Positions 23,475 to 45,335 of a stretch of DNA of 64,000 nucleotides are shown in pieces. The DNA is taken from assembly GCA_963783375.1 (NCBI GenBank), contig CAWANH010000029.1, forward strand, positions 928,001-992,000, given 5' to 3'. Below the pieces are notes generated by a model, which worked only from the letters and a program-made list of their open reading frames with translations, had not been told where the DNA came from and did not search any database. Both the position numbers and the translations under genes were made by a program. Every line of letters begins with the position of its first letter. Within the stretch, counting starts at the first letter, position 1. Source of the DNA: Candidatus Eiseniibacteriota bacterium. GTDB taxonomy: Bacteria > Eisenbacteria > RBG-16-71-46 > JABDJR01.

Positions 23475-24143
23475 ATGGCCACTAGGCATACCCCCGATTG
23501 CGGCCCGCATCTCCCGGCGTTTGGGAGCGTTGCTCGTTCCCGCCCTGCTGGTCCTCTCGTTCGCTTCCACGCCTCCGCCGGTGTCATCGTCGCCTTCGGC
23601 GGCGCCTCCGGACCCGGGCTGGCCAGCATGTCGTTCAACAACCTGGGAACCCCGTCTCCGGGCAACGACAACTTCGCCGGCACCTCGCCCAACTGGGTCG
23701 CCGTCAACCAGAAGGCCTACAATGCCGTCGGCTACATCGACATGGTCTTCGTCGTCGTCGATTCCGGAGCGACGCCCATCACCGAATACGTGCTCACCGA
23801 GGGCGTCGACAACGGCACCGGCATCGACTGGACCGACTACCACCTCCAGCTCGGGTTCGGGACCGGCGCTTCCTTCGTGCCCTCGGGCCCCGGGGACGGG
23901 CTCGACTTCGACGCCCCGGACTACGACTCCCCCTTCAGCTTCGCGCCATTCACCACCGTGAACCCGGGCGAGGACGGCGTCGATGCCTACGGCGGCACCT
24001 TTCCCACCGGCTCGTTCCACGTCATATCCTTCCCGTTCGACGTCCCGAACGGCATCACCGAGTTCACGATCCGGCAGTATCCCACCATTTCCCCCACGCC
24101 CACCGAGGCCACGACCTGGGGAAGGGTGAAAGCCCTGTACTGA
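23475..24143 (+). CDS. Secreted surface protein with C-terminal TWGxxK tail
   Basis: AAGGAG RBS; signal peptide ([16 protein letters not shown]) recovered by compensating frameshifts; beta-rich body; ends [14 protein letters not shown]. Confidence 0.8.
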
Positions 24144-24175
24144 TCCGGGCGAAGTATCCACCGGCCGGCGCCGCG

Positions 24176-25222
24176 TCAGAGTCCGAGGACGCTCTCGACC
24201 TCCAGGAAGAGCGGCCACACGGCCCCTCCGGTGTTGCCGAGCATCGTTAGGACGATGCTCGGGCCGGGGTAGACGGCGGAGCGCATGGCCACACCCGGGT
24301 CCGAGCCCTCGACGAAGACCTTCCGGATCGCTTGATCCGGAAGGTCGATCCATACGCCGTATCCGTAGTGGGTATATGGCGAGTTCAGTGCGGTGGCGAT
24401 ATGCGGCTCGAGCAGCGCCTCGGTGGTCCCGACCGCCAGTAGTTCGGATCCGGTCAACGCCCTCCAGAACCGCGCCAGGTCCGGCGCGGTGGTGTACGCC
24501 CCTCCGTCGGGCCCGCCGATGACCGGCACCGCGAAGACGTTGGTCCGCCAGGACCCGTCGTCGTCCTTGATGTAGGCGCGGGCGGTCCGCTCCGGCAGCC
24601 GGTCGGCCGGGAAATACCCCGAATCATCCATGCCCGCCGGTTCGAACACCGTTTCCCGAACGACGTCCGGGAAGGGCTTGCCGGCCACGCACTCGGCGAC
24701 CAGGCCCAGGAGGATGTAGCCCCCGTCGTTGTACTCGAACCTGTCCCCCGGCGGGAACTTCATGGGCCTGTCCCGGAAGAGAGGCAGGAAATCCTTCGGT
24801 CCTCTCATCCGGTACACGGGAACGTCCCGCCACAGCGCCTCGTAGTCCGGGTCCATGTCCTCCTCGAAGTACGAGGTGATCCCCGAACTGTGGGTGAGGA
24901 GGTGGCGGACGGTGATCTCCGGCGAGAAGTGCGGGAAGGCCTCGTCGACGCACTCGGTCAAGCGGGTGTCGAGGCTCACCATTCCCAGCTCCACCAACCG
25001 GCAGACCGCCACCGCAGTGAAGATCTTGCACCCCGACGCCGTCTGGAACCGGGTGTCGATCCGGTTGGGGACGGACTCCGAGCGGACGGCCGGGCCGTAG
25101 GCGTCTTCGAAGAGAACCTCGTTGCCATGCGTCAGACAGACCACCCCGGAAAACGGCTCGGGATCGGTCCGGCTCTCGATGCAGGCGGCCAGCGCTTTCG
25201 GGTCGAGCTTCATGCGATTCAT
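24176..25222 (-). CDS. Serine hydrolase, beta-lactamase class C-like
   Basis: SGCK (SxxK), LLTHSSG, FEYND, YGYG. Confidence 0.9.
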   Translation of the reverse strand: MNRMKLDPKALAACIESRTDPEPFSGVVCLTHGNEVLFEDAYGPAVRSESVPNRIDTRFQTASGCKIFTAVAVCRLVELGMVSLDTRLTECVDEAFPHFSPEITVRHLLTHSSGITSYFEEDMDPDYEALWRDVPVYRMRGPKDFLPLFRDRPMKFPPGDRFEYNDGGYILLGLVAECVAGKPFPDVVRETVFEPAGMDDSGYFPADRLPERTARAYIKDDDGSWRTNVFAVPVIGGPDGGAYTTAPDLARFWRALTGSELLAVGTTEALLEPHIATALNSPYTHYGYGVWIDLPDQAIRKVFVEGSDPGVAMRSAVYPGPSIVLTMLGNTGGAVWPLFLEVESVLGL

Positions 25223-25498
25223 CCTGTGGCGGGGCGGGAACACGAGAAGGGCCCGCTCCGGCCGCGAAGGGTATCATGCCCGGAGCGGGGGCCCACGGCG
25301 TGAAGCGGAGGGCGCGCGGATCGCCCGGATCCTCCACCCCCGTCCCGTCGGCCCGGACCGCCTCCACGGGCCGCCGGGGGGCCATTCCCAGGCGGCATGG
25401 TATGATGCGATCTCCGCCGGGGCGGTGAGCGGGACGAAGACCATAGGGATCGATCGGCGGCAGAACGTACTCCCCAACCTACAGGAGCCATCCGACCC

Positions 25499-27883
25499 AT
25501 GCCCCTCGATCCTGGCACCCGCCTTGGCCCCTACGAGATCCTGGACGCGCTGGGAGCCGGCGGCATGGGCGAGGTCTACCGCGCCCGCGACACCCGTCTC
25601 AACCGGACGGTCGCCATCAAGTCCCTATCCCACGCCTTCGCCGACGACCCCGGCCACCTGGCCCGGTTCGAGCGGGAGGCCAAGGTCCTGGCCTCGCTGA
25701 ACCACCCCAACATCGCCGCCATCTACGGGCTCGAGGACCACGCGGGAGCTCCCCACCTGGTCCTTGAGCTGGTGGAGGGCGAGACCCTGGCCCAGACGCT
25801 CACCCGGGGACCGCTCCCGGTCTCGGAGTCCCTCCAGGTCTGCGGGCAGATCGCCGAAGCCCTGGAGGCCGCTCACGAACGGGGCATCGTCCACCGGGAC
25901 CTGAAGCCGGGAAACGTCATGCTCACCGCCACGCGAACGGTGAAGGTGCTGGACTTCGGTCTGGCCAAGGGACAGGCCTCCACCGAGGACTCCTCGGCGG
26001 TTCTGACCGCCACCCCCACCGCACCGGCCTTCTCCACCGGCGCGGGATTGATCCTCGGCACCGCTCCCTACATGAGCCCGGAGCAGGCCCGCGGTAGGCC
26101 GGTGGATCGTCGGACCGACGTGTGGGCGTTCGGGTGCGTGCTCTACGAGTGTCTCTCCGGCCGGGCAGCCTTCGCCGGGGAAACCGTCTCCGACGTGATC
26201 GCGAAGATCCTGGAGCGCGAGCCGGACTGGAGCGCGCTTCCCCCCTCCACGCCTCCCCGCCTCCGCACCCTCCTCGGTCGCTGCCTCACCAAGGACGCGG
26301 TGCAACGGCCCCGCGACATCGGTGACCTGCGGCGGGAGCTGACCGCCATCGCCCTGGAAATGTCCGCGCCCAAGGTGGGCCGGACCTCCCCCGCCGACCG
26401 GCCGTCGCTGGCCGTGCTCTACTTCGAGAACCTCTCCACCGACAAGGAGAGCGAGTACTTCTGCGCGGGGATCACCGAGGACATCCTCACCGATCTCTCC
26501 AAGATCAAGGGACTCCGGGTGGCGTCCCGAAACGCGGTGGCCAAGTACCGCGGCGAATCCGTGGACATCTCCCGGGTGGCTTCGGACCTGGGGGTGCGGG
26601 CGGTGCTGGAGGGGAGCGTCCGGAAGGCCGGCGACCGCGTCCGCATCTCCGCCCAGCTCATCAACGGCTCCGACGGGTTCCATCTCTGGGCCGACCGCTA
26701 CGACCGCGTCCTGGAGGACGTCTTCGCGGTGCAGGAGGAGATCGCCTCGGCCATCGCCCAGGCGCTCCGGGTGGCGCTCACCCCGTCGGAAGCGAGGAGG
26801 CTCACCCAGGACCGCCCCCAGGACGTGCGGGCCTACGACCTGTACCTGAAGGGGCGCGAACAGTACGGCCAGTACACCCCCGAGGGGATGCGAAACGCCC
26901 TGAATCTCTTCCAGGAGGCGATCGGGGTGGACCCGAACTACGCCCTGGCCTGGGCGGGTATCGCCGACGCCCACGGCCAGATGCTGCAGTTCGGAATCAG
27001 CGAGAACGTGGACGAGACATTTCGGGCGGGGCTCGAGGCCGCGGAGCGGGCCATCCAGATCAACCCCAAGCTGGCCGAGGGCTACAAGGCCAAGTCCCTG
27101 GTGCTCCGGTTCTCCGGCGACCGGGAAGGATCCAATGCCGCCCTGGCCCAGGCGATCGAGGTCAATCCGCGCTTCACCCCCGCCCTCATCAACGTCGCGG
27201 TGGAGGAGTTCTGCCGGGGCGACGTGGCCGGAGCCGAGCGCCATGTGCGCCGGGTGCTGGAGATCGATCCCCAGGAGTCCTTTGCCACCATCTGGCTGGC
27301 CTGGCTCATGACCTACACCGGCCGCTGGGAGGAGAGCGCCGCCATCGGCCGCCAGCAACGCACCCTCTCCGACAATCCGATCTACGTCGCCGCCACGTAC
27401 GGATTCCAGCTCAACGCCGCCCTGGCCGCCGGCGACATCGAGAGTGCCCGGGACCTGTATCGCCGCGCCGCCGCCGAAGTCTCGGACAAGCCCAACCTGA
27501 GGGTGATGAAAGCGTCGATCGCGCTTTCCAGGGGGGATCTCGAGACCGCGCAGAAGATCGCGCGGGAACTGCGGGATGACCGTGGGGTGGGAGGGGGACC
27601 GCTGCTCGAGCTGGCCCGGATCGAGCTGGCCGCGAACGACCCCGAAGCGGCCCGTCACTTCCTGGAGCGGGGATTCGTTCGCGATCTGGCTCCGGTGGCG
27701 ATCCGGCTCCTTCCACACCTCCGCCCCCTCCTCGGCTCCCCGCCCTTCACCCCGAGGCGGATGGACGCGGTCCTGGTGTGGCCGCTGGAGGCGCCCATGC
27801 CGGACCGGGAGATGCTGTCGCTCTTCCGGGAAATCCGGCTGGACACCGGCACCCCCGAGGGCAGTGGAGTGGAGCCGGCCTGA
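25499..27883 (+). CDS. Ser/Thr kinase with TolB-N-like domain and TPR repeats
   Basis: [26 protein letters not shown]; SLAVLYFEN...LEGSVRK...; helical TPRs. Confidence 0.93.
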
Positions 27884-28214
27884 CTCCGACCCCGGCCGCT
27901 ACGATCGGTCGCTTGCGCCGACCGCTGAACGCCGTCCACGTTCGATACGCCCGGGGCGACCACTTGGGTCGCGCGGTCGCGGGAGCGATCCACGGCGGCT
28001 CCTGATGCGCCCCGCGTAGCCGACGTTCGGCTCCAGCGCCTGCGTGAACAGGGGCTTCCGGGGGCCGAGGATGCCGTCGGGAAGCATGGGGCCGACTCCG
28101 AGGCTCCCACGTCCACGGTGGTCGATCACCCGAATCCCCAACCTCCCATACGGCGCCACGTTCACGTTTCCGGGCGACCACCCCATGCCGACCTGGGGCG
28201 CAAGGACCTTCTGC

Positions 28215-28500
28215 CCGCCGCGACGAGGTACATGTTGTCCCGCCAGACCGAGAAGTTGATCGTACCGGGAGCGCTCCAGGCAGCGCCGATGATGCTCCCG
28301 ATCCCCGGAATCTCGCAGATTGCCGTGGGCCGCCCACCCTCGACGGGGACCTTCCAAAGCTTCCGGTCGTCGGCGTAGACCAGCTCCCGCGAGTCCGGGG
28401 ACCAGCTGGCCGGCCCGGCGGCCAGGATATCGGCAACGGACCTCGGGGTGAGCTGATCCAGATCGCGGACCCACACGTGATTTGCAGAGGTGTATGCGGA
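28215..28500 (-). pseudogene. Fragment of TolB/PD40 beta-propeller (kinase-associated type)
   Basis: HVWVRDLD...WSPDSRELVYADDRKLWKVPVEGGRP, similar to the propeller of the 35488 kinase; no start or RBS. Confidence 0.65.
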
Positions 28501-28708
28501 CCGCGAGCCGGCGCTGGAGGAAGTGATCCTCGAGTGTCTCCAGGGGGATCCGCGGCGCCGGCCCCGTTCGGCGCGTGAGATCGGCGAACGGCTCGCGGAG
28601 ACGAGGCCGGCCGGGTCGCCGGCGACTTCCGCCACCTCGTCGAGGAACGCCACCGCCGAACCGGCATCGGTCGTGGTGATTCCGGTCGAGGACTCCGCTG
28701 CCGGTTAG
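28499..28708 (+). pseudogene. Ser/Thr kinase C-lobe fragment
   Basis: PALEEVILECLQGDPRRRPRSAREI = kinase subdomain XI with no upstream domains. Confidence 0.6.
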
Positions 28709-29053
28709 GACGACTGGTTGGCGGGTCGGTTCGAGCAGGCCGTCGAGGGCGCCCGGCGAGCGGGGGTCTTCGAGCCGGAGAACTTTCTTTTCTACACGCC
28801 GTGGGTGGTCCTGATGTTGAGCGGCCGGGAGGACGAAGCCGCGCTCATGACCCGGATGGTCGACCGGAAGGAGGACCCCACCTTCACCCGCCTCCTGCGG
28901 TTCCACATCGCCGCCGTGTCCCCGGTCACCGCCCTGGGCGGAACTCGACCCCACCCGGGTCTGGTGGCCTACTCATGTGTGGACCCGGAAGATGCGGGGT
29001 GCTACCCTTTCGCGCTTCTTCGCCTCGGTCCACCCGGCCCACCCTGAGGAGGT

Positions 29054-29431
29054 ATGCATCCCATGCCCGACAAGACCCTGACCCCCTACGAGAACCTGCA
29101 ATTTGCCCCCCTTGCCGATGGAAGCCCGGTGCAGATCTCGCTGCTGTGGGGGAATCCCGAGACCGGGCCCGCGGCGGTGCTGGTGAAGTTCCCCGAAGGC
29201 TACCGCGAGCCCTGGCACTCCCACACCTCGACCTACCACGCCGTGGTCGTGAAGGGCGCTTTCCGCTCCCTCAGTCCCGAGGGCGGGCCGCAGTCGGAGC
29301 GCGTGCTGGGACCGGGTTCCCACATGATCCAGCCCGGCGGCGTGACCCACGCCGAAGTCAACGCCGGAGCGGGCGACGCGCTGGCCATGGTCTACTTCGA
29401 CGGGCCGGTCGACTTCGTGATGGCGGAGTAG
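29054..29431 (+). CDS. Cupin-fold protein (DUF4437-like)
   Basis: GAGGAGG RBS; PWHSHT...YHAVVVKG...QPGGVTH cupin motifs. Confidence 0.8.
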   Translation: MHPMPDKTLTPYENLQFAPLADGSPVQISLLWGNPETGPAAVLVKFPEGYREPWHSHTSTYHAVVVKGAFRSLSPEGGPQSERVLGPGSHMIQPGGVTHAEVNAGAGDALAMVYFDGPVDFVMAE

Positions 29432-29459
29432 CGAGGGCCCGGCCTCGATGGGGCGGCCG

Positions 29460-29481
29460 TGGTGCCGGGAGGGGGACTCGA
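29460..29481 (-). repeat. Duplicated tRNA-Leu 3' end (att-like)
   Basis: TGGTGCCGGGAGGGGGACTCGA vs TGGTGCCGGGAGGGAGACTTGA at 33157-33178, 20/22 identical, same orientation. Confidence 0.8.
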
Positions 29482-29511
29482 TTCCCCGCGGGGCGATCGG
29501 TCGGCGAACCG

Positions 29512-30198: not shown

Positions 30199-32811
30199 AT
30201 GTCGCTGAGCCCCGGGGCCCGGTTGGGCCCGTACCAAATCGTCTCCCCGCTCGGGGCCGGCGGCATGGGCGAGGTCTACCGAGCCACGGACACCCGTCTG
30301 GGGCGCGAGGTCGCGGTCAAGGTGCTCCCCCGGCACCTGAGCGAGAACGCCGAGGTTCGCGCGCGCTTCGAGCGGGAAGCGAGGACCGTTTCCTCCCTGA
30401 ACCATCCCCATATCTGCACCCTCTTCGACGTCGGACGCGAGGGGGACACGGACTACCTCGTGATGGAGCTCATCGAAGGTGAGACCCTCGCCCAGCGGCT
30501 CACCCGGGGCCCCGTGCCGATCGACCAGGTCGCCACAATCGGCGCGCAGATCGCCAACGCGCTCACGCTCGCACACCGTTCCGGCATCGTGCACCGTGAT
30601 CTCAAACCCGGCAACGTCATGCTCACGAAGTCGGGGGCAAAGCTCATGGACTTCGGCCTGGCGCGCCCCACGGGTCTTGCCGGCGGCGAGAGCGACAAGT
30701 CCATGGCGACCCTCACCCAGTCCCCCACCATGGCCGAACCGCTCACCGCGCAGGGGACGATCGTCGGCACCTTCCAATACATGTCGCCCGAGCAGCTGGA
30801 AGGCAAGGAGGCCGACGCGCGCAGCGACATCTGGGCGCTCGGGTGCATCCTGTATGAAATGGCAACCGGCAGGCATGCCTTCGACGGCAAAAGCCAGGCG
30901 TCGCTGATCGCCGCGATCCTCGAGCACGAACCGGAGCCCATCACCGACCTCCAACCGATGTCGCCGCTGGGCCTGGATCGTCTGGTGCGGGCTTGCCTGG
31001 CCAAGGACCCGGACGACCGCGTTCAGACCTCGCACGACGTCCGGTTGCAGCTGGAGTGGCTCGGGGCGGAGCCGGCCGGCGGCGAGCGGCCGGCGGCAAC
31101 CCCCGCGCGTTCAAGGAGGATCGGTGTGCCGCCGCTGCTCGCGGCGCTGGCGGCGATTGCGGTGGTGGCCGTGCTGGCGTTCGTGGCCGGCCACCGGAAT
31201 GCGGCGTCCGCGGACGACCTGGCGGGAGACTTCCACCGGAGGACCTACGGCACCCAGAGCATCTTCACCGCGCGCTTCATGCCCGACAACAAGACGGTCG
31301 TGATGAGCGCGGCCCTCCACGGCAGCCGCACGGAACTGTTCGTCATTCGTCAGGAGTATCCCGAACCCCAGCCGCTGAACCGCAAGGACGTGCACCTGCT
31401 CGCCGTCTCCTCACGTGGTGAGCTGCTGGTTCTCGACCACGCCCGCTACACGGGGAGCCACCGGTTGTTCTCCGGCACCCTGGCGCGCATGCCGCTGGAA
31501 GGCGCGGCACCACGCGAGCTCATGGACAACGTCCGCGAGGCGGACTGGGGGCCGGACGGGGAGACCATGGCGATCATTCGGGACCTGGGAGCCGCCGACC
31601 GGCTCGAGTATCCAGTGGGGACCGTACTGCGCGAATCGGCCGGCTACCTGAGCGACGTGCGCGTGTCACCGGACGGCAACCTGGTGGCCTTTCTGGAGCA
31701 TCCCTGGCGTTTCGACGACCGCGGAAGCGTGCAGATCGTGGATCGCTCCGGAAAGAGCCGGGAGCTTTCGAGCGGCTACTGGGGACTGGAAGGCATGGCC
31801 TGGGCGCCGGACGGAAAATCGCTCTACTTCAGCGGAGGAAAGGGCGGGGCCATGTACAACGTGTTCCGCGTCACGCTGGACGGCGATGCGCACATGGTCA
31901 GCGACAACGCCGGCACCATGATCATCCACGACGTTTCCAGGGACGGGACGTGGGCCGTGAGTCGCGATGATACCGCCGAACGCATGTTCTTCCGGGCCGC
32001 GGGTAGCGATCGGGACGTGGATCTCAGCTGGCTCGACGACATGGTCAGTCCCGTTCTCACGGGGGACGGGAAAGCGCTCCTCTTCACCGATCAGAGCAGC
32101 GAAGCCGGCGTGAACTACGGCGCTGCCTTCCGTCCCACTTCGGGCGGCCCGATCGTCCGCCTGGGAGAGGGAGGGGTGAGCGATGTCTCCGCGGACGGGA
32201 AGTCCGTGCTCGTGAGGATCCCCGACACTCCTCCCCGGCTCATGTCCTACCCGATGGGTGTGGGGGAAATCGCGCGATTGGACCGAGGGCAGTTCGAGAA
32301 CCTGTCGGTTGCTTCGTGGCTTCCGGATGGACACGTCCTGGTCTGCGGGAACCTTCCGAAGGGCCCGACGCGCGCCTTCGTGCTGGACCCCACCACGCAC
32401 GAGGCAACCCCGGTGGGGCCGGATGGACTCTGGTCGTGTTTCCCCTCCCCCAGCGGGAAGACGTTCATCGCGCAACAGGAGACCGGGTGGGTGACCTGCC
32501 CTCTGGAGGACGCGGGCGAGGTGACCCCGGCCCCGGGCCTGAGGTCGGACGACCATTTCATCCGGTGGAATCACGGCGGGTCCGCGGTGTTCGTTTTTCA
32601 CCTGGCCGAGATCCCGGCCCGGATCGACAGCGTCAGCCTGGCCACGGGGTCGCGCGAAACGGTCCTCACAGTGAGCGAGGGAGAGAACGCCGGTCGGACC
32701 GGAATAAGCTCTGTCTCGATGGCGGACGACCTGCGCACGGTTGCGTACGAAGCCGACCAGCTCATCTCGGTGCTGTTCACCGTCACCCGCACGCGCCCAT
32801 CGGGTCTCTGA
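30199..32811 (+). CDS. Membrane Ser/Thr kinase with TolB/PD40 beta-propeller
   Basis: Kinase motifs, TM helix LLAALAAIAVVAVLAFVAG, WGPDG/SPDG/WAPDG repeats. Confidence 0.93.
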   Translation: MSLSPGARLGPYQIVSPLGAGGMGEVYRATDTRLGREVAVKVLPRHLSENAEVRARFEREARTVSSLNHPHICTLFDVGREGDTDYLVMELIEGETLAQRLTRGPVPIDQVATIGAQIANALTLAHRSGIVHRDLKPGNVMLTKSGAKLMDFGLARPTGLAGGESDKSMATLTQSPTMAEPLTAQGTIVGTFQYMSPEQLEGKEADARSDIWALGCILYEMATGRHAFDGKSQASLIAAILEHEPEPITDLQPMSPLGLDRLVRACLAKDPDDRVQTSHDVRLQLEWLGAEPAGGERPAATPARSRRIGVPPLLAALAAIAVVAVLAFVAGHRNAASADDLAGDFHRRTYGTQSIFTARFMPDNKTVVMSAALHGSRTELFVIRQEYPEPQPLNRKDVHLLAVSSRGELLVLDHARYTGSHRLFSGTLARMPLEGAAPRELMDNVREADWGPDGETMAIIRDLGAADRLEYPVGTVLRESAGYLSDVRVSPDGNLVAFLEHPWRFDDRGSVQIVDRSGKSRELSSGYWGLEGMAWAPDGKSLYFSGGKGGAMYNVFRVTLDGDAHMVSDNAGTMIIHDVSRDGTWAVSRDDTAERMFFRAAGSDRDVDLSWLDDMVSPVLTGDGKALLFTDQSSEAGVNYGAAFRPTSGGPIVRLGEGGVSDVSADGKSVLVRIPDTPPRLMSYPMGVGEIARLDRGQFENLSVASWLPDGHVLVCGNLPKGPTRAFVLDPTTHEATPVGPDGLWSCFPSPSGKTFIAQQETGWVTCPLEDAGEVTPAPGLRSDDHFIRWNHGGSAVFVFHLAEIPARIDSVSLATGSRETVLTVSEGENAGRTGISSVSMADDLRTVAYEADQLISVLFTVTRTRPSGL

Positions 32812-33156: not shown

Positions 33157-33245
33157 TGGTGCCGGGAGGGAGACTTGAACTCCCACGGGCCTTGCGGCCC
33201 AACGGATTTTAAGTCCGTTGCGTCTACCCGTTTCGCCATCCCGGC
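33157..33245 (-). tRNA. tRNA-Leu (TAA)
   Basis: GCCGGGATGGCGAAACGGGTAGACGC AACGGA-CTTAAAA-TCCGTT, long variable arm, GTTCAAG T-loop, CCA. Confidence 0.96.
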
Positions 33246-33969: not shown

Positions 33970-33977
33970 TCCGGTTT

Positions 33978-34005
33978 GGGAGGGGGCGACCCGTCGCCCT
34001 CTCCC
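33978..34005 (+). terminator. Hairpin between convergent genes, putative terminator
   Basis: GGGAGGGGGCGAC/GTCGCCCTCTCCC stem followed by a pyrimidine tract. Confidence 0.5.
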
Positions 34006-34093: not shown

Positions 34094-34927
34094 TCAGCGG
34101 GACTGGCCGAACCGGCGCTTCAATTCCCCGAAAGTGATCCGCTCCACCGGCGTCTGGGCATCGTAACCGTCGCTGAATTCGATGGCGAAGAAATCCCGGT
34201 AGCTGCTGGACGTCCCCGGAATCAGCTCATCGGCGATCTCGATCACGGGATCGATCGTCCCCGTGGCGGTTCCCGTGGCCACCGCCCCGACACTGACGTT
34301 GAGCATCGATGCAGAGGCCGACATGCCGACGAGGGTGACCGTGTCGACGGGAATCGCCGGAGTCTGGTCGATGGTAAAGGCATCCGTGGCCGGATCGGAG
34401 GTCCCGGAATCCCCGTTCACGTCCAGGCTGGAGGTGATCAGAATCCCCGCGCCCACCGCCTGAAACCGAAAGGACGAGGTGGCGCGCGAGCCGAAGACGT
34501 TCCGGACCGCCCCCCCCCCGGTGGCCAGTAGGTGGACCGGCACGTCGGTCACGCTGACCGGCGGAGTGGCCGTCTCGACGACCCGGAACTGGAAGTCGAT
34601 GGAAACGATGCTGGACAGGTTGAGAGAAGTGTTCCCCTCGGAGATGTTCCAGGTGACCTCCGCCGTTCCTTCCGGAGGTCCCGCGGATCCAAATCCCACG
34701 CTCCCCGCAACCGCGTAGCCGATACCGGAGAGCTCCTCTGTATGAGACTCGGGAATCGCCGAATCGGAACCCTGGAAGCCGGCGGTGCTGGGACCGACGG
34801 TCAACGAAATGTTCTCCTCCCAGAGCGTGGACGAGAGAGGAAACTGCGCCTCAACGCGACCGGCAAGAAGAACCAGACCGGCGGCCATGAGAAGAAGAGT
34901 CGGTTTCATACGATGGGCAAACTTCAT
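34094..34927 (-). CDS. Secreted Ser/Thr/Gly-rich protein with TWGxxK-like tail
   Basis: Signal peptide LLLMAAGLVLLAGRVEA|Q; ends PVERITFGELKRRFGQSR; GAGGAGG RBS. Confidence 0.75.
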   Translation of the reverse strand: MKFAHRMKPTLLLMAAGLVLLAGRVEAQFPLSSTLWEENISLTVGPSTAGFQGSDSAIPESHTEELSGIGYAVAGSVGFGSAGPPEGTAEVTWNISEGNTSLNLSSIVSIDFQFRVVETATPPVSVTDVPVHLLATGGGAVRNVFGSRATSSFRFQAVGAGILITSSLDVNGDSGTSDPATDAFTIDQTPAIPVDTVTLVGMSASASMLNVSVGAVATGTATGTIDPVIEIADELIPGTSSSYRDFFAIEFSDGYDAQTPVERITFGELKRRFGQSR

Positions 34928-35487: not shown

Positions 35488-38189
35488 ATGCTACTTCGCC
35501 AACCCCCGCCTCCAGTCGGTGACGAGCCGCAAGAAGCCCTTCTCGTCCTCGGAGACGTCCCCCCCCACGTAGAGGAGCCGGTCCCCGTCCGGGCCCAGCG
35601 AAACCGGAATCCCTCCCGCCACCGGCGCGGAGACCTGGGCGAAGAGCTTCGGCGCCCCGGTCTTGAAAGTGGACCCGCTCCCGTCCACGGGCACCTCCAT
35701 GACTTCCCCGGAGGCCTCGATGTAGAAGAGCTTCTTGCCGTGGGGGCCCCAGAACGGATAGACGCCTTCGTCCCGGTCGACCTGCCATTGCCGGTTTCCC
35801 CCGGTCATCGGGCGCACGATGACTTCCCACGCCCCGCTCGCGGACTGCTTGGTATAGGCGAACCACCGTCCATCGGGCGAGACCTGCGCCACCACGTCGA
35901 GCCCCTTGTCCCCGACCTTGAGTTCCATCTTCCCGGTGTCGACCGCCATCTCGTAGATGTTGTAGCCCGTGTCGGGATCCTCCCGGGTGACCATGAGGGT
36001 CGAGCCGTCGGGAGTCATCCCGTCAGAGGTGACTTCCTCCGTCCCCTCGTACAGGACCGTCGCCCCTCCGGTCCCCTCCACCGGCCGGCTCACGATACGA
36101 TAGGTGCTGTCCACCTGCGTTTCGTACAGGACCGACTTGCCGTCTGGGGTCCAGACCGCGTCCTGCTCGTCCCCGGGATCGAAGGTGAACCGCGTCCGGA
36201 GACCGGAGTCCAGGTTCACCAACCACAGGTCCGAGGTTTCGGTTTCGGGGTCGACCACCTCCACCACCGCCTGGGTGCCGTCCGGGGATACCCGCGGCCG
36301 CCGGAACTGTCCCGGCTCCCCCACCCGGCCGAGCTGGGTCCCGCTGGGTCCCGTCCAGGCCAGGAACTGTTCGGCGCTTCCGGTCGAGATCTGGTATGTG
36401 AGCATGCCCTCCCCGGTGGAGGAGTAGACGGCGCATACCGCGCCGCCCGACAGGACGAGGATGTTCTCCACCAGGGGAATACCGTCGGGTCCCAGCTTCC
36501 CGGTCCGGGGATCCATGGGGGTGGCCAGGAGGACCCCCTCCCGAACGGTGAGCAGGCTGCCGGCCGAGTACTCGGCCTGCGCTTCCGACGTGGCGATCAT
36601 CTGCGGGGGGCTTCCGTCCAGGGAGCCGATGTAGACCCGGTTGCTGTCGTTCCTGGCCGGTATCATGCGGGCGAGGAACAGGAACCGCTGTCCGCCGGGA
36701 AGGAACCGCGGCTCCCGGTGCGAGTTCTCGCCGTCATCTCTGTTGATCGTGGTGATCTCGACCGCGGTTCCCCCCGAGGCCGAAACCCGGTGGATCCCGC
36801 TCTTGTGATCGGGAGCGAAGAGGATCACGCCGTCCCGGTTCCAGGTGCCTCCCTTCATGTTGCTCGCCGGGCAGAGGACGACCGGGGGGCCGCCGGCCAC
36901 CGCGACCTTCTTGAGCTTCCCGTCCGAGGCGAACCCGACGTACCGGCTGTCCGGCGACCAGAAGGGATAAACCGCGTCGGTGGTGCCGGTGATGACGGTG
37001 GCGTCGGGGCTGTCCAGCCGCCGCAGGTGGAGGGTCACCGGCCCCGACGCGTCCCGGGCCGCATAGGCCATCATGGTCCCGTCGGGGGAGAGGGCGACCG
37101 GGCCGGGATCGGTCCCGCTGAGATCGAACGCCCCCCCGGGCGGAGGCGGGACGGTGAGGTTCAAGACCTGCGGGGGCGCGGACCGGCCGAGGACCTTCCA
37201 GCCCAGCATCACCCCTCCCACGGCCAAGGCGAGAGCGACCACCACGGTGGCCCAGAGGGGAAGGCCGCGCTTCCACCCGGGCGTGTCCTCCCCCCCTCTG
37301 AAATGCCGCTCAGGGATGACGCGGCCAGGATCGAGGAATCCATGGCCCCGCTCTCCAGGAAGATGCGGGCCTCCCCCACGTCCCGCAGCCGCCGCCGGGG
37401 ATCGCGCTCCAGGCACCGCTCCAGGAGCAGGCGCATACCGCGTGACGTGGTCTTGGGCAGCCGGTCCCATTCGATGTCGGCGCGCAACACCGCGGCCAGG
37501 GTGTCGCTCACCGTCTCGCCCTCGAACAGGCGCTTCCCCGAGAGCATCTCGAACAGGATCACCCCGAAGGACCAGATGTCGGCGCGCCGGTCCACCTTCT
37601 TCCCCCGCGCCTGCTCCGGGCTCATGTAGGCCGCGGTGCCCAGGATCACCCCACCCCCGGTCAGGGCGGCGGTGATGGTGGGCGAGTTCTCCAGGGCCTC
37701 CTCCTCGGCGGTTTCTCCCACGAAGGCCCGGGCCAGGCCGAAATCGAGGATCTTGACCTTGCCCTCGGAGCTCACCTTGATGTTGGCCGGCTTGAGATCG
37801 CGGTGGACGACGTGCCGCTCGTGGGCCTCCTCGAGTCCCGCGGCGAGCTGCCGGGCGATCTCGAGCGTCTCTTCCTCGGGGACCGGCCCCTGAAGAATGC
37901 GCTCGGAGAGGTCGGTCCCCTCGGCCAGCTCCATGGCCAGGAACCCCTGCCCGTCGGCTTCCTCCAGCCCGAAGATCGAGGCGATGTTGGGGTGCTGCAG
38001 CGACGCCAGCACCCGGGCCTCCCGCCGGAAGCGGGCCAGGCGCTCGGGATCCCGGGCGAAGTCCGGAGGCAGGAGCTTGACCGCAACCTCGCGCCCGAGC
38101 TTGGAGTCCCGGGCGCGATACACCTCCCCCATCCCTCCCTTGCCCAGGAACGCGGTGACTTCGTAGTGGCCGAGGGTCTTGCCGATCAG
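35488..38189 (-). CDS. Membrane Ser/Thr kinase with TolB/PD40 propeller (frameshift ~37295)
   Basis: IGKTLGHY, GKGGMGEVY, HRDLKPAN, DFG; after a C-run shift, TM helix and SPDG repeats; apparent CTG start after GAGGAG. Confidence 0.88.
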
Positions 38190-38555: not shown

Positions 38556-39377
38556 GTGCCGGACCATGGCAATCGATCGAGGACCAACGGCTGCGCCCTG
38601 GTCGTCGCGGCCCTGTTGGCGGTGCCGCTCGTGGTGGTGGGTGTCGTGGCCCTGAGGACGTGGATACCTCTGCAACTGGCCGGCCGGAGCCTGGATGAGC
38701 TCGACCGGACCCTCGGGACCGAGGCGCGCTACACGCCTCCGCCTCTCGGCGCGATTCCCGCCGGGAGGATGGATCGCTTTCTCGAGCTTCGGGCTTCGCT
38801 GATGCGTTCGTGCGAGGACTATGCCGTCCTACGGGAAGGATTCGAAGCCGTCGCCTCCCTGGATTCGACCGAGACGCCGGATGTAGAAGGGACCGTCCGG
38901 GCGGCGCGGAGCGTGGGAGGCGCAGCGTTGGCGATCACGCCCTACATGGCCAGGTTCTTCAGGCTACGGAACACGACGTTGCTCGCGGACTCCATGGGGC
39001 TCGAGGAATACTCTTACATCTACGCGATGGCTTATCACGATCGTCTGCTGTCGGAGGAAACGCGTGCGGAGATCTTCTCGGACGGCGACGCCCTCTCCCC
39101 GGAAGCCTCGGAGATGCTGCGAGGATGTCTGGCGAGGCAACTGGAGGTCCTTGGTCCCGAGAACGCCGCGTCGGACTGGCGCGCCTCGCTCATGCAGGAG
39201 CTGGAGCGGATGGAGAGCGATCCCTCCCGGCTCCCCTGGCAGGACGGGCTGCCTCCCCCGATCGCCGCGAGCCTGACGCCCTATCGGGAGCGGCTCGATC
39301 GCGTGTTCTGTGGGGCCACAGCCGGCCTGGAGATGGAGCGGAGTACGCGTCGCGCCCTACGGATCGCACTCTACTGA
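38556..39377 (+). CDS. Hypothetical membrane-anchored protein
   Basis: AAGGAGG RBS, GTG start, N-terminal TM helix, helical body. Confidence 0.7.
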   Translation: MPDHGNRSRTNGCALVVAALLAVPLVVVGVVALRTWIPLQLAGRSLDELDRTLGTEARYTPPPLGAIPAGRMDRFLELRASLMRSCEDYAVLREGFEAVASLDSTETPDVEGTVRAARSVGGAALAITPYMARFFRLRNTTLLADSMGLEEYSYIYAMAYHDRLLSEETRAEIFSDGDALSPEASEMLRGCLARQLEVLGPENAASDWRASLMQELERMESDPSRLPWQDGLPPPIAASLTPYRERLDRVFCGATAGLEMERSTRRALRIALY

Positions 39378-39495
39378 CCACCCGATCCGTGTGCGCACCG
39401 ACCCGGCCGGCCGCGGTGAGGCCCGGCCCGGTGGCAAACGGCGCCCGCCCGAGGACCGGGGCCGGTCCCATCGCCTCAGCGGGCAGGCCCCGGAC

Positions 39496-39524
39496 TTGAA
39501 ATGCTTAGCCCCTAAGTATAAAAT
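39496..39524 (+). promoter_or_regulatory. Sigma70 promoter with operator inverted repeat; leaderless start
   Basis: TTGAAA-N17-TAAAAT; spacer holds CTTAG-CCC-CTAAG; ATG 6 nt after the -10. Confidence 0.7.
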
Positions 39525-39530
39525 AGGCCC

Positions 39531-39986
39531 ATGAGACTCCCCAGCGACATCCGGAGGAGATTTCAGGAACACGGGAGACGAGGAGGCGCAGAACGCTCCC
39601 GGCGCCTTTCCCCCGGCGCCCGAGCGGCCATCGCCAGACGCGCCGCCCTGAAGCGCTGGACAGCGGTTCGCTTCGGCGGCACTAGCTTCGCCGCCCTGCA
39701 ACTCCCCGGGGGCGAGTTGATCGACGCGGGGGTCGACGATCTCGCCACCGGAAAGGAAACTATCGAGAGCCTCCTGGTCTCGTTGGCCGCCCCCCGGCTT
39801 CGTCGCGAGAACGTCCCCCTCCCTTCGGCGACCCTCTCCGACCCGGACCTTCGCCTCTACCGGTTGCTCGAACGGTCCGAAGGCGACCTCGCGCATTCCA
39901 GATACCTGGCCTACCTGCGACGGGTAAGCTCGTTCGCGGACGCCTGCCACGCGTACTCGGCGGGTCGGAGTCGCCTTGCGGGATGA
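39531..39986 (+). CDS. Hypothetical basic protein, putative antitoxin/regulator
   Basis: Arg-rich N-terminus (GRRGG...LSP..R..IARRAA..RW); overlaps the downstream nucleotidyltransferase. Confidence 0.65.
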   Translation: MRLPSDIRRRFQEHGRRGGAERSRRLSPGARAAIARRAALKRWTAVRFGGTSFAALQLPGGELIDAGVDDLATGKETIESLLVSLAAPRLRRENVPLPSATLSDPDLRLYRLLERSEGDLAHSRYLAYLRRVSSFADACHAYSAGRSRLAG

Positions 39987-40512
39987 ACTCACCCGCGAGC
40001 GGTTGGACGCGCTCATGCGGGAGATCGCCCGCACCGCTCCCCGCCGGGGCAGCTATCGGGTGTATCTGGTCGGCGGGGGAACCGCGGTTTACGCGGGGTG
40101 GCGTGCGTCCTCCATCGACGCCGATCTGTTCTCCGAACAGGAGGCGGTCTTTCACGACATCCAGGGCATCAAGGAGCGCCTCAACGTGAACGTCGAATTC
40201 GCCAGACCCGAACACTTCGTCCCCGCGCTCCGGGGAAGCGCCGGGCGCCACCTCTTCATCGAGACCATCGGACGCGTTTCCTTCTTCCACTACGACCCCT
40301 ACTCCCAGATCCTCTCGAAGATCGTCCGGGGCTTCCAGCGGGACGTCGACGATGCCCGCCACTTCGTGGAGAGCGGCATGGTGGAAGGCCCGAAACTCCG
40401 GGATCTGGTCGAGGGCATCCCGACCCCAGCCTACTCGAAGTATCCGAGCCTCTCCCGGCCGGCCGTCGTCGGGGCCGTCGACGCATTCCTGTCCGAGCTG
40501 CCGCGGGGGTAG
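39976..40512 (+). CDS. Nucleotidyltransferase (AbiEii/DUF6036-like)
   Basis: YLVGGGTA...R.SSIDAD motif, SKI.RG..RD..D. Confidence 0.75.
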   Translation: MRDELTRERLDALMREIARTAPRRGSYRVYLVGGGTAVYAGWRASSIDADLFSEQEAVFHDIQGIKERLNVNVEFARPEHFVPALRGSAGRHLFIETIGRVSFFHYDPYSQILSKIVRGFQRDVDDARHFVESGMVEGPKLRDLVEGIPTPAYSKYPSLSRPAVVGAVDAFLSELPRG

Positions 40513-40573
40513 AATCCGGTCCTGAAATCCCACGCCCCGGCCCGAACCGGTCGACCACCTTGGAGTCCCGCCC

Positions 40574-41113
40574 ATGCCCGACACCCACGGAACCATCCTC
40601 GAAACCGGGAGGCTCCTCCTCCGGGAACTGACCCTGGGCGATCTGGACGCGCTCGCCGCCCTCTACCGGGATCCCGAGGTGCGGCGCTACTTCCCGGAGG
40701 GCGTCCTCACCCGCGAGGAGACCCGCGAGGAGCTGGAGTGGATCATCCGGGAGTACTACGCCAAGCACGGCTTCGGCCTCTGGGCGACCATCCACAGGGA
40801 GTCCGGCGCCTTCATCGGCCGCTCGGGCCTTCTTCCCTGGACCATCGACGGGCGGGCCGAGGTGGAGGTGGCCTATCTGCTGGCCAGGGAGTACTGGGGT
40901 CGGGGCCTGGGCACCGAGGCCGCCCGGGCCATCGCGCACCATGCCTTCGATACCCTCCCGGTCTCCCGGCTCATCTGCCTGATCGACGCCCGGAACGCGG
41001 CCTCGCGCCGGGTCGCCGAGAAGATCGGGATGACCCTCTACCGGGACGATTTCGAGGACGACAAGGGCCCCGCCCACATCTACGCCATGGCGCGACCGGA
41101 GACGACATCATGA
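40574..41113 (+). CDS. GNAT acetyltransferase (RimJ/RimL-like)
   Basis: LETGRLLLR, YWGRGLGTEA, N.ASRRVAEKIG. Confidence 0.92.
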   Translation: MPDTHGTILETGRLLLRELTLGDLDALAALYRDPEVRRYFPEGVLTREETREELEWIIREYYAKHGFGLWATIHRESGAFIGRSGLLPWTIDGRAEVEVAYLLAREYWGRGLGTEAARAIAHHAFDTLPVSRLICLIDARNAASRRVAEKIGMTLYRDDFEDDKGPAHIYAMARPETTS

Positions 41114-41646
41114 ACGACGCGATGAAGGAGACCGTCTGGCGACAGTTCGGCGCCGCCATCGACATGCTCGAGGGGGCCGTCCGGGCCTGTCCCGAATCGA
41201 TCTGGCGCGACCGCGATCGCCAACCGGAGACCTGGTACCTGGCCTACCACACGCTCTTCTGGCTCGATCTCTATCTCTCGGGGCCGGTGGAAGGGTTCCG
41301 CCCGCCGACGCCCTTCGGCCTGGAGGAACTCGACCCGGCGGGAGTCCTCCCCGATCGCGTGTACACCCGGGAGGAACTCCTGACCTACCTGGAGCACGGC
41401 CGCCGCAAGTGCCGCTCGACCATCACCAACCTGACCGACGACAAGGCGGCGGAACGACATGCATTCGGCTGGGGGGAAGCGAGCTTCGCCGAACTCCTCC
41501 TCTACAACCTTCGCCACGTGCAGCACCATACCGCGCAGCTCAACCTCATCCTCAGGCAGTCGATCGATTCCGCCCCTCCATGGGTAACCCGGACGGGAAA
41601 CCACCTCCCGTCCTCTGAACTCCACGGCAATCCGCACGCCCGGTAG
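41110..41646 (+). CDS. DinB-family protein
   Basis: WYLAYHTL, YNLRHVQHH metal-binding histidines; ATGA overlap with GNAT gene. Confidence 0.85.
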   Translation: MNDAMKETVWRQFGAAIDMLEGAVRACPESIWRDRDRQPETWYLAYHTLFWLDLYLSGPVEGFRPPTPFGLEELDPAGVLPDRVYTREELLTYLEHGRRKCRSTITNLTDDKAAERHAFGWGEASFAELLLYNLRHVQHHTAQLNLILRQSIDSAPPWVTRTGNHLPSSELHGNPHAR

Positions 41647-41676
41647 CCGCTCCGTCACCCGCGCCGAAACCGGATC

Positions 41677-42684
41677 TCACTTCTCCAGCCGCACGTCGTC
41701 CCACCAGAGCGAGACCGGCTTGCGGACGTGCACGATGAAGAGCGTGACGCTCTGGATCCGGGCCATGTCGAGGAGCCGCGCCCGGGGGCTCCGCCGGATC
41801 TCCTCCAGCGGGATCCGAAAGGTGTTCATCCCGGGTTTGAGGCTCAGGTTCACGTAGGCCGCCCGGGTCCAGTCGTTTCCCACCGTGACGTCGTCGATCC
41901 GAAGCGCCATCGGAATCGTGTCCGGGAGGGTGGAGACCATCTCGAAGTCCAGGCTCCGGTATCTCCGCCAGTCGGGAACCGGCTCGCGGAGGGTGAGCCC
42001 GGCGTAGTCGACCGGCTTCAGGATCAGGTGGGCGGCGCGGTTCTCCGGGTCCTTCCGATACGGAGCCGGCAGGGGTTCAAAGCTCATCTCTGTCTCGTGG
42101 CTGAAGTAGAAGTAGTGCTCCCAGGGCGCGTCGAACCCGAAAAGGAGCGGAAACGCCTCATCCCGCTTCGCGTAGGCGTCCCCCACCTCCACCACCGGCC
42201 GGGCCACGATCCCCACCGGGATGAGGGCCAGCAAGACCACGGTCACCCGGAGGGGGGCCCGCCAGCGGGCGGGAATCCGGAGCGTCGCGTCCACCGCCGC
42301 GGCCAGGAGCAGGCAGGCGACGATCCCGGCCAGGTCCCGCTCCCAGTCCCCCAGGTCGGCGTCCCGCCCGGTGAAGTGCTGGAGGATCTCGCTCCCCAGG
42401 CCGGCGGTCGCGGCCAGGAAGAAGACCCCAACGTACCGGCCGAGCCTCCGCCACCCCCGGGCCGGCCACGCCCGGACCATCGCCCAGAGCGCGATCCAGG
42501 CGAACACCCCGAAGAGCGGGGCATGGCCCGCGTTGAACACCACGTCCCACCAGGCGCTCGCGCCCGGGGGCACGAAGACCTCGAGCACCACGATCAACGC
42601 GGCCAGGGCCAGCGACGCCAGGGCAAGGGAGCGCTTGCGGTGGGGCGCGCCGTGCCCCGACTCGCGGGAAGCGATCGCGCTCAC
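41677..42684 (-). CDS. VanZ-like membrane protein with C-terminal carbohydrate-binding-like domain
   Basis: NAGHAPLF, SEILQHFTGRDA..D..RD, about 5 TM helices, then DW..Y..L.F beta domain. Confidence 0.75.
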   Translation of the reverse strand: MSAIASRESGHGAPHRKRSLALASLALAALIVVLEVFVPPGASAWWDVVFNAGHAPLFGVFAWIALWAMVRAWPARGWRRLGRYVGVFFLAATAGLGSEILQHFTGRDADLGDWERDLAGIVACLLLAAAVDATLRIPARWRAPLRVTVVLLALIPVGIVARPVVEVGDAYAKRDEAFPLLFGFDAPWEHYFYFSHETEMSFEPLPAPYRKDPENRAAHLILKPVDYAGLTLREPVPDWRRYRSLDFEMVSTLPDTIPMALRIDDVTVGNDWTRAAYVNLSLKPGMNTFRIPLEEIRRSPRARLLDMARIQSVTLFIVHVRKPVSLWWDDVRLEK

Positions 42685-43400
42685 CGCGCCCCCGGCACGG
42701 TCACGGTGACCGGGTCGCTCGGTGCGCTCTCGTTGAAGGCGTCGTCCACCACGGTCACGCGATAGGTGTAGTTCGAGTCGGGCTCGACGGTGAAGTCCTC
42801 GAACCCGGCGGACCGGAGATCGGGGACGAATCCCTGGAGCGGAAACGGCGGATCCCGGAAGAGATTGTAGTGATGGAAAGCGGGATCGTCCGACGCCTCC
42901 CAGCCCAGCACCACCTCGTAGCGACCGGCGATGTCGTTCAGAACCGCCCGGGCGGTGAGCCCCTGCGGGGGCGCGGGAGCGGTGAAATCCACCCGGACCC
43001 ATACCACCCCGGTGGGAAGGCTCTCGATCCCCGCCGGGCTGACCGAGGTCAACCGGTACCAGTAGCGAACGCCGTCCACCACGTCCTCGTCCACCAGAAT
43101 GCTCCCGGTGAAGAGTTCCCGGTTCAGCCGCACGTAATCGGCATCCGCGGGCGGCGACTCCCCCACCGCCCGGTAGACGTTGAAACCGTCGATGAAGGCG
43201 AACAGGCCCGGGTCGGCCTGCCAGGTCACGTTCACCGAGCCCACCGACGGGAGCGCCAGGAGGTCGGTGGGCAGGGGAAGCGAGGCCGGGGCGCGAAAGG
43301 CCGCGGTCGGGGTCACGGTGTGCCCGCAACCCGCGAGCGCGACGAGAACCGCCGGCCACAGGGCGAGCGAAAGAACGCGAAGCCGCGGGCGGCGCCTCAT
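42681..43400 (-). CDS. Lipoprotein with two fibronectin type III-like domains
   Basis: Lipobox LAG|C; FNVYR, YWYRLTSV, YNLFR, YTYRVTVVD...ESAPS. Confidence 0.8.
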   Translation of the reverse strand: MRRRPRLRVLSLALWPAVLVALAGCGHTVTPTAAFRAPASLPLPTDLLALPSVGSVNVTWQADPGLFAFIDGFNVYRAVGESPPADADYVRLNRELFTGSILVDEDVVDGVRYWYRLTSVSPAGIESLPTGVVWVRVDFTAPAPPQGLTARAVLNDIAGRYEVVLGWEASDDPAFHHYNLFRDPPFPLQGFVPDLRSAGFEDFTVEPDSNYTYRVTVVDDAFNESAPSDPVTVTVPGAR

Positions 43401-44269
43401 CGCTTCCACCGCCATGCCGGGCTCGTGGCCAACGCGAGGCTCCACCGCGTGCCGGAGAGCGTGTTCCGCCCCCACACCGTGGTTCGCGCCTCCGCCTCCA
43501 CCGCCACTCCGCGCCCAGCGGCCACCGACACCGTCGCGGCCAGGTCGAGGTTGTCGGGATCCACGGTGGAGGGGTCGAAGCGAGTCTCTCCCGGCCGGGC
43601 CGGCGGGGGCCCCACCGCGACGCCGCCTCGGGCTTCGCCCCGAAGACCCACCCGCGAGCCGATGCCCGTCCCCCCCCCGATCGCCCCCTCCACCCGGTCC
43701 CGAAACACCCCGCCCCGGAAGACGTAGGCCGCGTCCAGGTTTCCCCAGTAGCCGGTGAAGGACGACCCCGCCGAGAGTCCCAGGGAGAGATCGCGAATGC
43801 CCGAGCCGAGGGCGGGGTACTCCTCGACCGCGTAGCCGGTGGGGAAGGTGGCGGCGGCCAGGACCGAGGCCACCCCGCGCGATCCCCGCCAGAGCCCGCG
43901 CTTCACCCCCACCGCCAGATCGGAGAACCCGTAGGTCTCGAACACCGCCGAGGGCTGGTTGGCCTGAAGGCGCTTCCAGGACCCCGCGGCCACCAGGTTC
44001 CAGCCCGGAAGGAGCCCGACCTCGGCGTACATCGCCACCGCCAGGTCCTCGTACCGGGTGTTCCGGAAACCGCCCCCGGCGGCGTCGAAGGGGACGGCGC
44101 GACCATCCTGATCGAGCCGCTCCCGGGTGGAGAGCGCACCGGCGGAGAGGCGGAGGTAGGCGGTTCCGGGCTCCTGGAGCCACGCTCCCGCCCGGGCCGG
44201 GCCGGAGCCCCCGAGGAGAGTCACGAGGGCGAGCAGGACGGCCACCCGGGCCCTGGGTTCGAAGCGCAT
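43397..44269 (-). CDS. Putative outer-membrane beta-barrel protein
   Basis: Signal peptide, AWLQEPG start, alternating amphipathic strands, GFSDL.VG.K. Confidence 0.65.
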   Translation of the reverse strand: MRFEPRARVAVLLALVTLLGGSGPARAGAWLQEPGTAYLRLSAGALSTRERLDQDGRAVPFDAAGGGFRNTRYEDLAVAMYAEVGLLPGWNLVAAGSWKRLQANQPSAVFETYGFSDLAVGVKRGLWRGSRGVASVLAAATFPTGYAVEEYPALGSGIRDLSLGLSAGSSFTGYWGNLDAAYVFRGGVFRDRVEGAIGGGTGIGSRVGLRGEARGGVAVGPPPARPGETRFDPSTVDPDNLDLAATVSVAAGRGVAVEAEARTTVWGRNTLSGTRWSLALATSPAWRWKR

Positions 44270-44492
44270 GAGGGGATGATACGGCCTAGGGTGAGGGCCG
44301 GTCGAAGGTAAGGGGACCCGGCCGGACCGGCGGCCCTGACCGACATGAAACGAAATCGCAATTCATTCGTGTATGAACCGGCAAGATGAGGTATCATGCC
44401 GGCCAAGAGGCGTCCCCTGGGAATTCAGCCCCGTCCTCCCCGGACGGTGTGAATCTCCCCCCATGCAACACGGTCATCCCCCGGAGGTACCC

Positions 44493-45335
44493 ATGAGTTC
44501 CTTGCGAAAACATCCCGAGTCCCCGCTCCGTTCCCGTCCGCTGGCCCTCATTCTCTTCGGCCTGGTCGCGCTGGGCCTGGCCGCCGCCCCCGCGGCCCAG
44601 GCCGGGTCGATCTTCCTCACCGGTCATGATCCGGACTTCCACGCGACCCGGGGACTGAACGCGGCCGGCGCCCAGACCATCAACAACGTGGCCATCAACT
44701 TCATCCGCGATCCCGGATTCAACCCCTACTTCGCCACCGCCCCCAAGTTCCTGTACGTGGAGTCCAGCATCACCCCGCCCACCGGCCATACCGTGGGCAA
44801 GGCCGGCATCGTGGCCAGCGGCTACGTCGAAGGGGTCGACTTCGACCATCACGACGCCTCCACCCTCGCCGCCGCCCTCGGCCAGCTCGGCCAGCCCGGC
44901 GGCTACTGCGCCATCGTGGTCGGCTCCGATTTCGGGGGGATCCTCACCCAGGCCGAACTCGACATCCTGAACGCGAACCAGGCGGCCATCGCCACCTTCG
45001 TGAACTCGGGCGGGGGAATCTACGCCATGTCCGAGGGGAACTCCGGCGCCGGTCTCACCCCCGGCGGCGGACACTACGCGTTCATTCCCACCGTGGTCTC
45101 GGCGGCCAGCGTGGACCAGGGCGAGACCGGGTTCACCGTGACCCCGTTCGGAGTGGGGCTGGGGCTGGCCGACAGCGACGTCAACGGGAACGCGTCCCAC
45201 GTGGTCTTCACCGCCACCGCGGGGTTGAGCGTGGTGGACACCGACGCCTCCGGCCGGATCCTCTCCATCGCGGGGCGGGAGCAGGTGATCCCGACCCGGC
45301 CCACGACCTGGAGCCGGATCAAGTCGCAGTACTGA
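44493..45335 (+). CDS. Secreted surface protein with C-terminal TWGxxK-like tail
   Basis: GGAGG RBS; signal peptide ...AAQA|GSIFLTGHDPDFH; ends PTRPTTWSRIKSQY. Confidence 0.82.
   Translation: MSSLRKHPESPLRSRPLALILFGLVALGLAAAPAAQAGSIFLTGHDPDFHATRGLNAAGAQTINNVAINFIRDPGFNPYFATAPKFLYVESSITPPTGHTVGKAGIVASGYVEGVDFDHHDASTLAAALGQLGQPGGYCAIVVGSDFGGILTQAELDILNANQAAIATFVNSGGGIYAMSEGNSGAGLTPGGGHYAFIPTVVSAASVDQGETGFTVTPFGVGLGLADSDVNGNASHVVFTATAGLSVVDTDASGRILSIAGREQVIPTRPTTWSRIKSQY

Follow-up and report, generated by a model that had tools for sequence, protein, structure and literature searches.

In the PEP-CTERM/exosortase system (PF07589, PF09721), unrelated exported proteins carry the same kind of short portable tag at their C-terminus. 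In FCB (Fibrobacteres-Chlorobi-Bacteroidetes) lineages, type IX secretion (T9SS) uses a C-terminal domain (CTD) as its signal, either of type A (TIGR04183, PF18962) or of type B, which is paired with a dedicated barrel of the PorP/SprF family (TIGR03519). MtrB of the MtrAB complex is a large barrel with a separate protein inside its lumen, and Slam, or type XI secretion, stands for small dedicated barrel systems which place folded proteins or lipoproteins on the surface, Slam itself consisting of a 14-strand barrel and a TPR domain. We analysed a 64,000-nucleotide stretch of a Candidatus Eiseniibacteriota genome (contig CAWANH010000029.1, positions 928,001 to 992,000; hereafter the window). 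Three of its proteins (cargo 1, 23475..24143, forward strand; cargo 2, 34094..34927, reverse strand; cargo 3, 44493..45335, forward strand) end in a similar short peptide, the TWG tail, which an initial annotation of the window had proposed as a new protein-sorting signal. This first reading is supported in outline: about 70 C-termini in this genome are one short peptide outside all catalogued families, and in two phyla the tail is present or absent largely together with a predicted outer-membrane barrel.

For the T9SS, PMC11969387 gives PT/GI as the cleavage consensus in Prevotella and describes short CTDs that are still three-stranded sheets; PMC12611786 reports that Chlorobiota lack SprA, BamG and BamH. 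Compared with these systems, the TWG tail resembles PEP-CTERM as a short portable tag found on unrelated exported proteins, at the same junction of the same bodies, but it has no Pro-Glu-Pro motif, transmembrane (TM) helix or basic cluster, gives no match to PF07589, and the genes that co-occur with it encode a predicted outer-membrane barrel and lipoproteins. Nor does it have the motif-then-TM-helix layout of LPXTG and GlyGly-CTERM. With type A CTDs it shares its C-terminal position in FCB lineages, common cargo domains, a similar linker and a conserved Lys near the end, whereas it is a helix-containing peptide of about 16 residues and not a beta-sandwich, sits on small cargo, matches no CTD family in 48 proteins, and is kept or lost with a different barrel while SprA remains. 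Like the type B signal it appears paired with a dedicated barrel; however this barrel has about 600 residues, and TIGR03519 reaches only 21.7 bits (cut-off 90.55) on one of six barrels and does not match the others. The top structural match of the barrel is MtrB (PDB 6r2q; Z 18.3, root mean square deviation 9.3, 501 aligned residues, TM-score 0.43), at 8% identity and within about 2 Z of generic large barrels, but the neighbours here are lipoproteins with weak SnoaL/NTF2-like matches and not a multiheme cytochrome. Unlike Slam, the modelled barrel has about 28 strands and no TPR domain. Judged by sequence, the tail behaves like a C-terminal sorting signal yet fails the defining features of PEP-CTERM, LPXTG, GlyGly-CTERM and the T9SS CTD.

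Occurrence and exchange of the TWG tail

The genome comprises 4.73 Mb at 69% GC, on contigs labelled C28, C29 etc. A pattern derived from the consensus, [TS][WF][GS]x[VILM]K, has 100 matches in its 66,750 stop-to-stop frames, 76 of them at most 15 residues from the stop. A tail profile seeded with 64 C-terminal cases gives 74 matches of at least 12 bits, 72 of which lie within 20 residues of the stop, against one match in reversed frames; the motif is thus enriched at C-termini genome-wide, as had been foreseen. The 74 bodies form 46 clusters, and since some small contigs duplicate genes only 68 tail segments are distinct. Their consensus is P-[VT]-P-[VT]-E-x-T-[TS]-W-[GS]-x-[ILV]-K-x-x-Y, with a net charge of about +1.9; Trp is conserved in 99%, and the Lys that the initial annotation called invariant is present in 68/68. 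In the 48 tail proteins scanned, the tail falls outside every Pfam and NCBIfam model, in keeping with the proposal that it lies outside the named sorting families. A search of titles and abstract openings, with supplements and most subscription papers outside its scope, found no published description of the tail or of the barrel-lipoprotein unit, and the available part of PMC10994853 holds nothing bearing on either.

The expected enrichment among signal-peptide proteins was also observed by a crude criterion (not SignalP): 58 of 65 tail genes pass it, compared with 78 of 110 for CTD genes and 893 of 3,507 for the remainder. Among the 61 tail proteins whose start was called, none has a TM segment beyond residue 45, and in the modelled protein of a single-copy family (see below) the tail is predicted as a helix (residues 120-129, pLDDT there 61-68), so that the description of a helix without TM segment holds. 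The helical moment (0.35 at 100 degrees, 0.43 at 170) was an uninformative test. The domains that make up the tailed bodies are of surface type (Ig-like, beta-helix, lamin-tail, PepA-like and choice-of-anchor). A five-member tailed family (L011, L006) includes a weak match to PepA, a floc-forming PEP-CTERM protein (NF033554, E 6.7e-6). In another protein (L020, C28:1279421-1280569), a perfect TWG motif stands immediately after the signal peptide, ahead of a domain whose end is rich in Cys.

Homologs of cargo 1 and cargo 3 exchange tails at the same junction, and the suspicion that the TWG tail takes the place of PEP-CTERM is thereby borne out. For cargo 1, with 124 homologs, the best 120 divide into 37 with the TWG tail, 78 with a PEP-CTERM-like tail and 5 with other ends, the switch occurring directly after the last body residues; for cargo 3, with 846 homologs, the best 120 divide into 39 with TWG-type tails and 81 with PEP-CTERM-like membrane tails. 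Within the genome, tailed bodies recur on T9SS-CTD proteins: the neighbouring genes C28:590810 (tail) and 591614 (CTD) encode bodies 36% identical over 162 aa. None of 121 CTD proteins also bears the tail, and CTD proteins are large (median 679 aa, n=110) compared with tailed ones (median 231 aa, n=61). SprA and an adjacent porU-porV pair, an exosortase (PF09721, E 1e-69) with an EpsI-like neighbour, and three true PEP-CTERM proteins are present beside the tail; three tagging routes therefore coexist. In the region C29:136830-151739 (L161, L302), porU-porV precedes a CTD protein, an order kept in genomes G001 and G002, as well as a probable barrel of 1,119 aa that has neither annotation nor Pfam match. 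Six C25 proteins are encoded in the genome.

A DNA pattern scan of GTDB returned at least 121 stretches with the tail. All named records among them (80 titled stretches) are labelled Eisenbacteria, Zixibacteria, Latescibacterota, Krumholzibacteriia, Ignavibacteria, Kapabacteria, Calditrichia or otherwise FCB, which agrees with the similar tails that the initial annotation placed in FCB candidate phyla. In the phylum of the window, 119 of 121 genomes have tails, from 1 to at least 74 each. Ignavibacteria-type genomes have the tail on one conserved protein, composed of a signal peptide, an FN3-like domain of a kind that occurs in T9SS cargo, and the tail. In this single-copy family (31 sequences, L068:3004-3396 and 30 relatives) identity is 84% in the tail but 29% in the body, which implies a fixed binding partner; instead of being cargo, the protein may belong to the core of the machine. 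Its family profile, run against 1.84 billion representatives, returned mostly repeat-domain proteins. The neighbours of tail genes were considered as the machine and rejected: 80 GTDB loci show no recurrent secretion gene, and the single-copy protein stands among what are presumably housekeeping genes. A distinct conserved tail protein of 140 aa occurs in Zixibacteria-labelled and other records (L025, L029, L051, L063, L069, L096, L097), where it adjoins what are presumably Rex-like and anti-sigma-factor genes. A membrane-type protein of a Bacteroidia record (L048:2446-3030) has a TWG-like helical end, possibly by chance.

The barrel-lipoprotein block and its distribution

About 91% of a small tail-positive genome (G120) was compared with the genome of the window, and a pair of lipoproteins drew attention because its homologs in the latter are tailed. 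The corresponding block, C28:943297-948916, contains in order an unannotated 642-aa protein, the two lipoproteins (Lp1 and Lp2) and three Lp2 paralogs with TWG tails. Lp1 and Lp2 give at most weak SnoaL/DUF4440 (NTF2-like) matches. Lp2 is the most conserved part of the unit (55% pairwise identity), and the C-terminus of Lp1 is itself a variant of the tail, of [ST]WS[ED]LKG type, with W, S and K kept in at least 90% of 19 aligned sequences. The 642-aa protein has no Pfam match above cut-off. Its model is an all-beta barrel (pLDDT 85.7, pTM 0.67) with 28 long strands, as counted on the DSSP line, and without plug domain; its most conserved stretch is an acidic motif, D388-T-P...DDRDE400. It is accordingly predicted to be a plug-less outer-membrane barrel or pore. 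A structure search returned generic large barrels only, MtrB first and SprA fifth (Z 15.8). The barrel gene also stands directly ahead of the lipoprotein genes in G005, G275 and G276. There is one barrel per genome, whether the genome has 1 or 70 cargo proteins.

Co-occurrence was analysed in two panels: panel 1, 151 genomes of the Ignavibacteria-containing phylum (that of G001), one sample serving for all searches, and panel 2, with 71 genomes from the phylum to which G002, a record labelled Latescibacterota, belongs. In panel 1 a full-length tail protein was found in 55 genomes (49 by the tail alone), the barrel in 56, Lp2 in 56, SprA in 120 and GldM above cut-off in 37. Tail and barrel occur together in 55 genomes and are both missing from 95, with the barrel alone in 1 and the tail alone in none. 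Tail and Lp2 are joined in 54, the tail being alone in 1 and Lp2 in 2 (one a weak partial match). These three loci are unlinked in panel 1 (in G100 they lie at 1.30, 1.64 and 2.45 Mb), and the named strain record Rosettibacter primus (L068) has one tail protein, the barrel and Lp2. In panel 2 the tail is present in 34 genomes and the barrel in 39; both are found in 34, neither in 32.

The distribution of T9SS parts is different. All 55 tail-positive genomes of panel 1 have SprA, but SprA occurs without the tail in 65 of its 120 SprA-positive genomes and in 37 of the 70 of panel 2; the latter is SprA-positive in 70 of 71 genomes, including all 32 without tail and barrel. Of the 83 panel 1 genomes with SprA but no GldM, 27 have neither tail nor barrel, and none of the 37 GldM-positive genomes has a tail protein. 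SprA-positive genomes without tail and barrel include single-contig ones, among which G032 keeps porU-porV. SprA can thus be kept where tail and barrel are both missing, and the tail therefore tracks the barrel and not the T9SS. The barrel-Lp1-Lp2 block, its model and this joint presence and absence in two phyla, which parts the tail from the T9SS, are new here.

The initial annotation had called for a search for a co-occurring sortase-like enzyme or translocon. An uncharacterised machine, barrel and two lipoproteins, is indeed the best candidate reader of the tail; a sortase-type processing enzyme finds no support, and nothing tested indicated cleavage. Two other candidate readers were discarded: PorV-like paralogs, whose tree of 18 has no tail-specific clade and many of which follow a CTD-type protein of their own, and a large shared protein at C29:1232898, which we take to be LptD.

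The window proteins and their surroundings

The three tails stand, stop codons included, where they had been annotated: 24093..24143 (forward strand, profile 31.9 bits) for cargo 1, 34094..34153 (reverse strand, 23.1 bits) for cargo 2 and 45288..45335 (forward strand, 27.3 bits) for cargo 3. The bodies are dissimilar, as was said of them, with no pairwise similarity (best BLASTP E 1.1-5.7). N-terminal signal peptides had been claimed for all three; cargo 2 and cargo 3 have clear leaders, but cargo 1 has none in frame from the ATG at 23475. Cargo 1 (222 codons) has a choice-of-anchor F-like body (NF033657, E 4.6e-11, 42.8 bits, below the cut-off of 50). A hydrophobic leader is present in the next frame, and because it matches the start of a homolog (P0001, 93% identical) we read the leader region (window 23475-23580) as containing compensating frameshifts, the result of either assembly error or damage. 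Cargo 2 (277 aa) has a divergent TFG tail with four extra residues and a body without Pfam or NCBIfam match; its one paralog in the genome (C29:1503407) is frameshifted. Frameshifts in further genes of the assembly, this paralog among them, suggest indel errors. The body of cargo 3 (280 aa) is unannotated. A tRNA-Glu lies at 1751-1828 (reverse strand) and a tRNA-Leu at 33157-33245 (reverse strand), about 850 bases from cargo 2. The genes at 25499-27883, 30199-32811 and 35491-38132 are presumably of Ser/Thr kinase type, the third seemingly split.

A candidate translocon and its alternatives

The tail, its modular swaps, the gene block, the joint distribution and the barrel model are the observed basis of the reading which we favour, and to which we give about an even chance: that the TWG tail serves as recognition signal for a translocon made up of the barrel, Lp1 and Lp2, by which small proteins in the folded state reach the cell surface without the help of type IX secretion. 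Cargo, to judge from the signal peptides, would be exported by Sec and would presumably fold in the periplasm. The short basic helix (W, I/L, the invariant K, Y/F) would then dock on the conserved acidic motif of the barrel or on the highly conserved Lp2, and the cargo would pass through the barrel, as the model and the small size of the cargo suggest. More speculatively, Lp1 might occupy the site with its own copy of the tail and so help close the pore at rest.

Several observations weigh against this translocon. The Lp1 tail of this very genome is degenerate, two cargo proteins reach 854 and 870 aa, and a few tailed proteins appear to be N-terminally anchored or to be lipoproteins. In the phylum of the window the barrel was found in 113 of 121 genomes and all 8 misses are tail-bearing, one of them 99% complete with 36 tails; these misses may reflect sensitivity, since profile scores are weak in those families. 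Conversely, six genomes over both panels have the barrel without a tail match. Since the profiles derive from genomes that have the tail, and a barrel profile of narrower scope matched 0 of 151 panel 1 genomes, absence in distant clades may in part be divergence. Many of the genomes are incomplete. Finally, the joint losses are probably a handful of independent events, related genomes not being independent.

As a whole, and slightly more tentatively, the unit could be described as a new outer-membrane secretion system of the FCB side, in which two NTF2-like lipoproteins gate a plug-less barrel with about 28 strands that exports folded cargo of about 25 kDa with a helical C-terminal signal of 10 residues. 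Bacteroidia would have lost this system, Ignavibacteria-type lineages would have retained it for a single protein, and in Eisenbacteria-type lineages it would have grown to serve about 70 cargoes.

Alternatively, the barrel could be a docking platform: cargo would cross by another route, possibly SprA, and the tail would then fasten it to the barrel or to Lp2, in the way that type B T9SS cargo is retained by PorP/SprF barrels. The co-occurrence of tail and barrel fits this too, SprA is present in nearly all tail-positive genomes (55/55 in panel 1, 33/34 in panel 2), the barrel of this genome is the one with the weak PorP/SprF match, and the tail stands in for a membrane anchor in PEP-CTERM homologs. 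We nevertheless find it unlikely: tailed cargo has no CTD with which to engage SprA, the barrel is about twice the length of a PorP-family barrel and modelled open, and the PorP match is missing from the five other barrels scanned.

Retention in the envelope is a second alternative, in which the tail would attach, within the periplasm, to Lp1/Lp2 or to the surface of the membrane, and the barrel would move small molecules or polymers. An amphipathic, positively charged tail, the tailed lipoproteins and possible signal-anchored proteins, and the L020 protein with its motif right behind the signal peptide are consistent with it. The strict conservation of the Lys and the 84% identity of the single-copy tail favour a specific protein partner over lipid, however, and the bodies are of surface type and present on T9SS cargo too, which makes retention quite improbable.

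A minimal T9SS signal is a further alternative, which we regard as very doubtful: PorV would read the tail and the PorU sortase would cut it, in lineages whose T9SS lacks a motor. SprA and porU-porV are in the genome, no GldM-positive genome of panel 1 has a tail protein, and the first half of the tail resembles the PT/GI site given in PMC11969387, in 55 of 68 own tails and 44 of 119 in other genomes. It also resembles the pre-CTD linkers of this genome (66/98, against 121/436 control windows). But Pro is found at the would-be P1' position in 87% of own tails, where PMC11969387 reports small residues; the tail is a predicted helix and known CTDs are beta; and 27 GldM-negative genomes in panel 1, like 32 genomes in panel 2, have SprA but neither tail nor barrel. 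Processing of the tail, as a PEP-CTERM substitute, by the exosortase of the genome is extremely improbable, since in spite of the enzyme, its EpsI-like neighbour and the positional swap the tail has neither TM helix nor PEP motif, and the three true PEP-CTERM proteins account for the enzyme.

If the barrel-Lp1-Lp2 translocon is correct, proteins would have a new way of crossing the outer membrane, for which a peptide of about 10-16 residues, in place of a folded domain, would be the signal. The Rosettibacter primus record would provide a four-gene minimal version beyond uncultured lineages, and a short portable display tag would be a useful tool. In several uncultured phyla, dozens of 'hypothetical' proteins in each genome would also receive a location.

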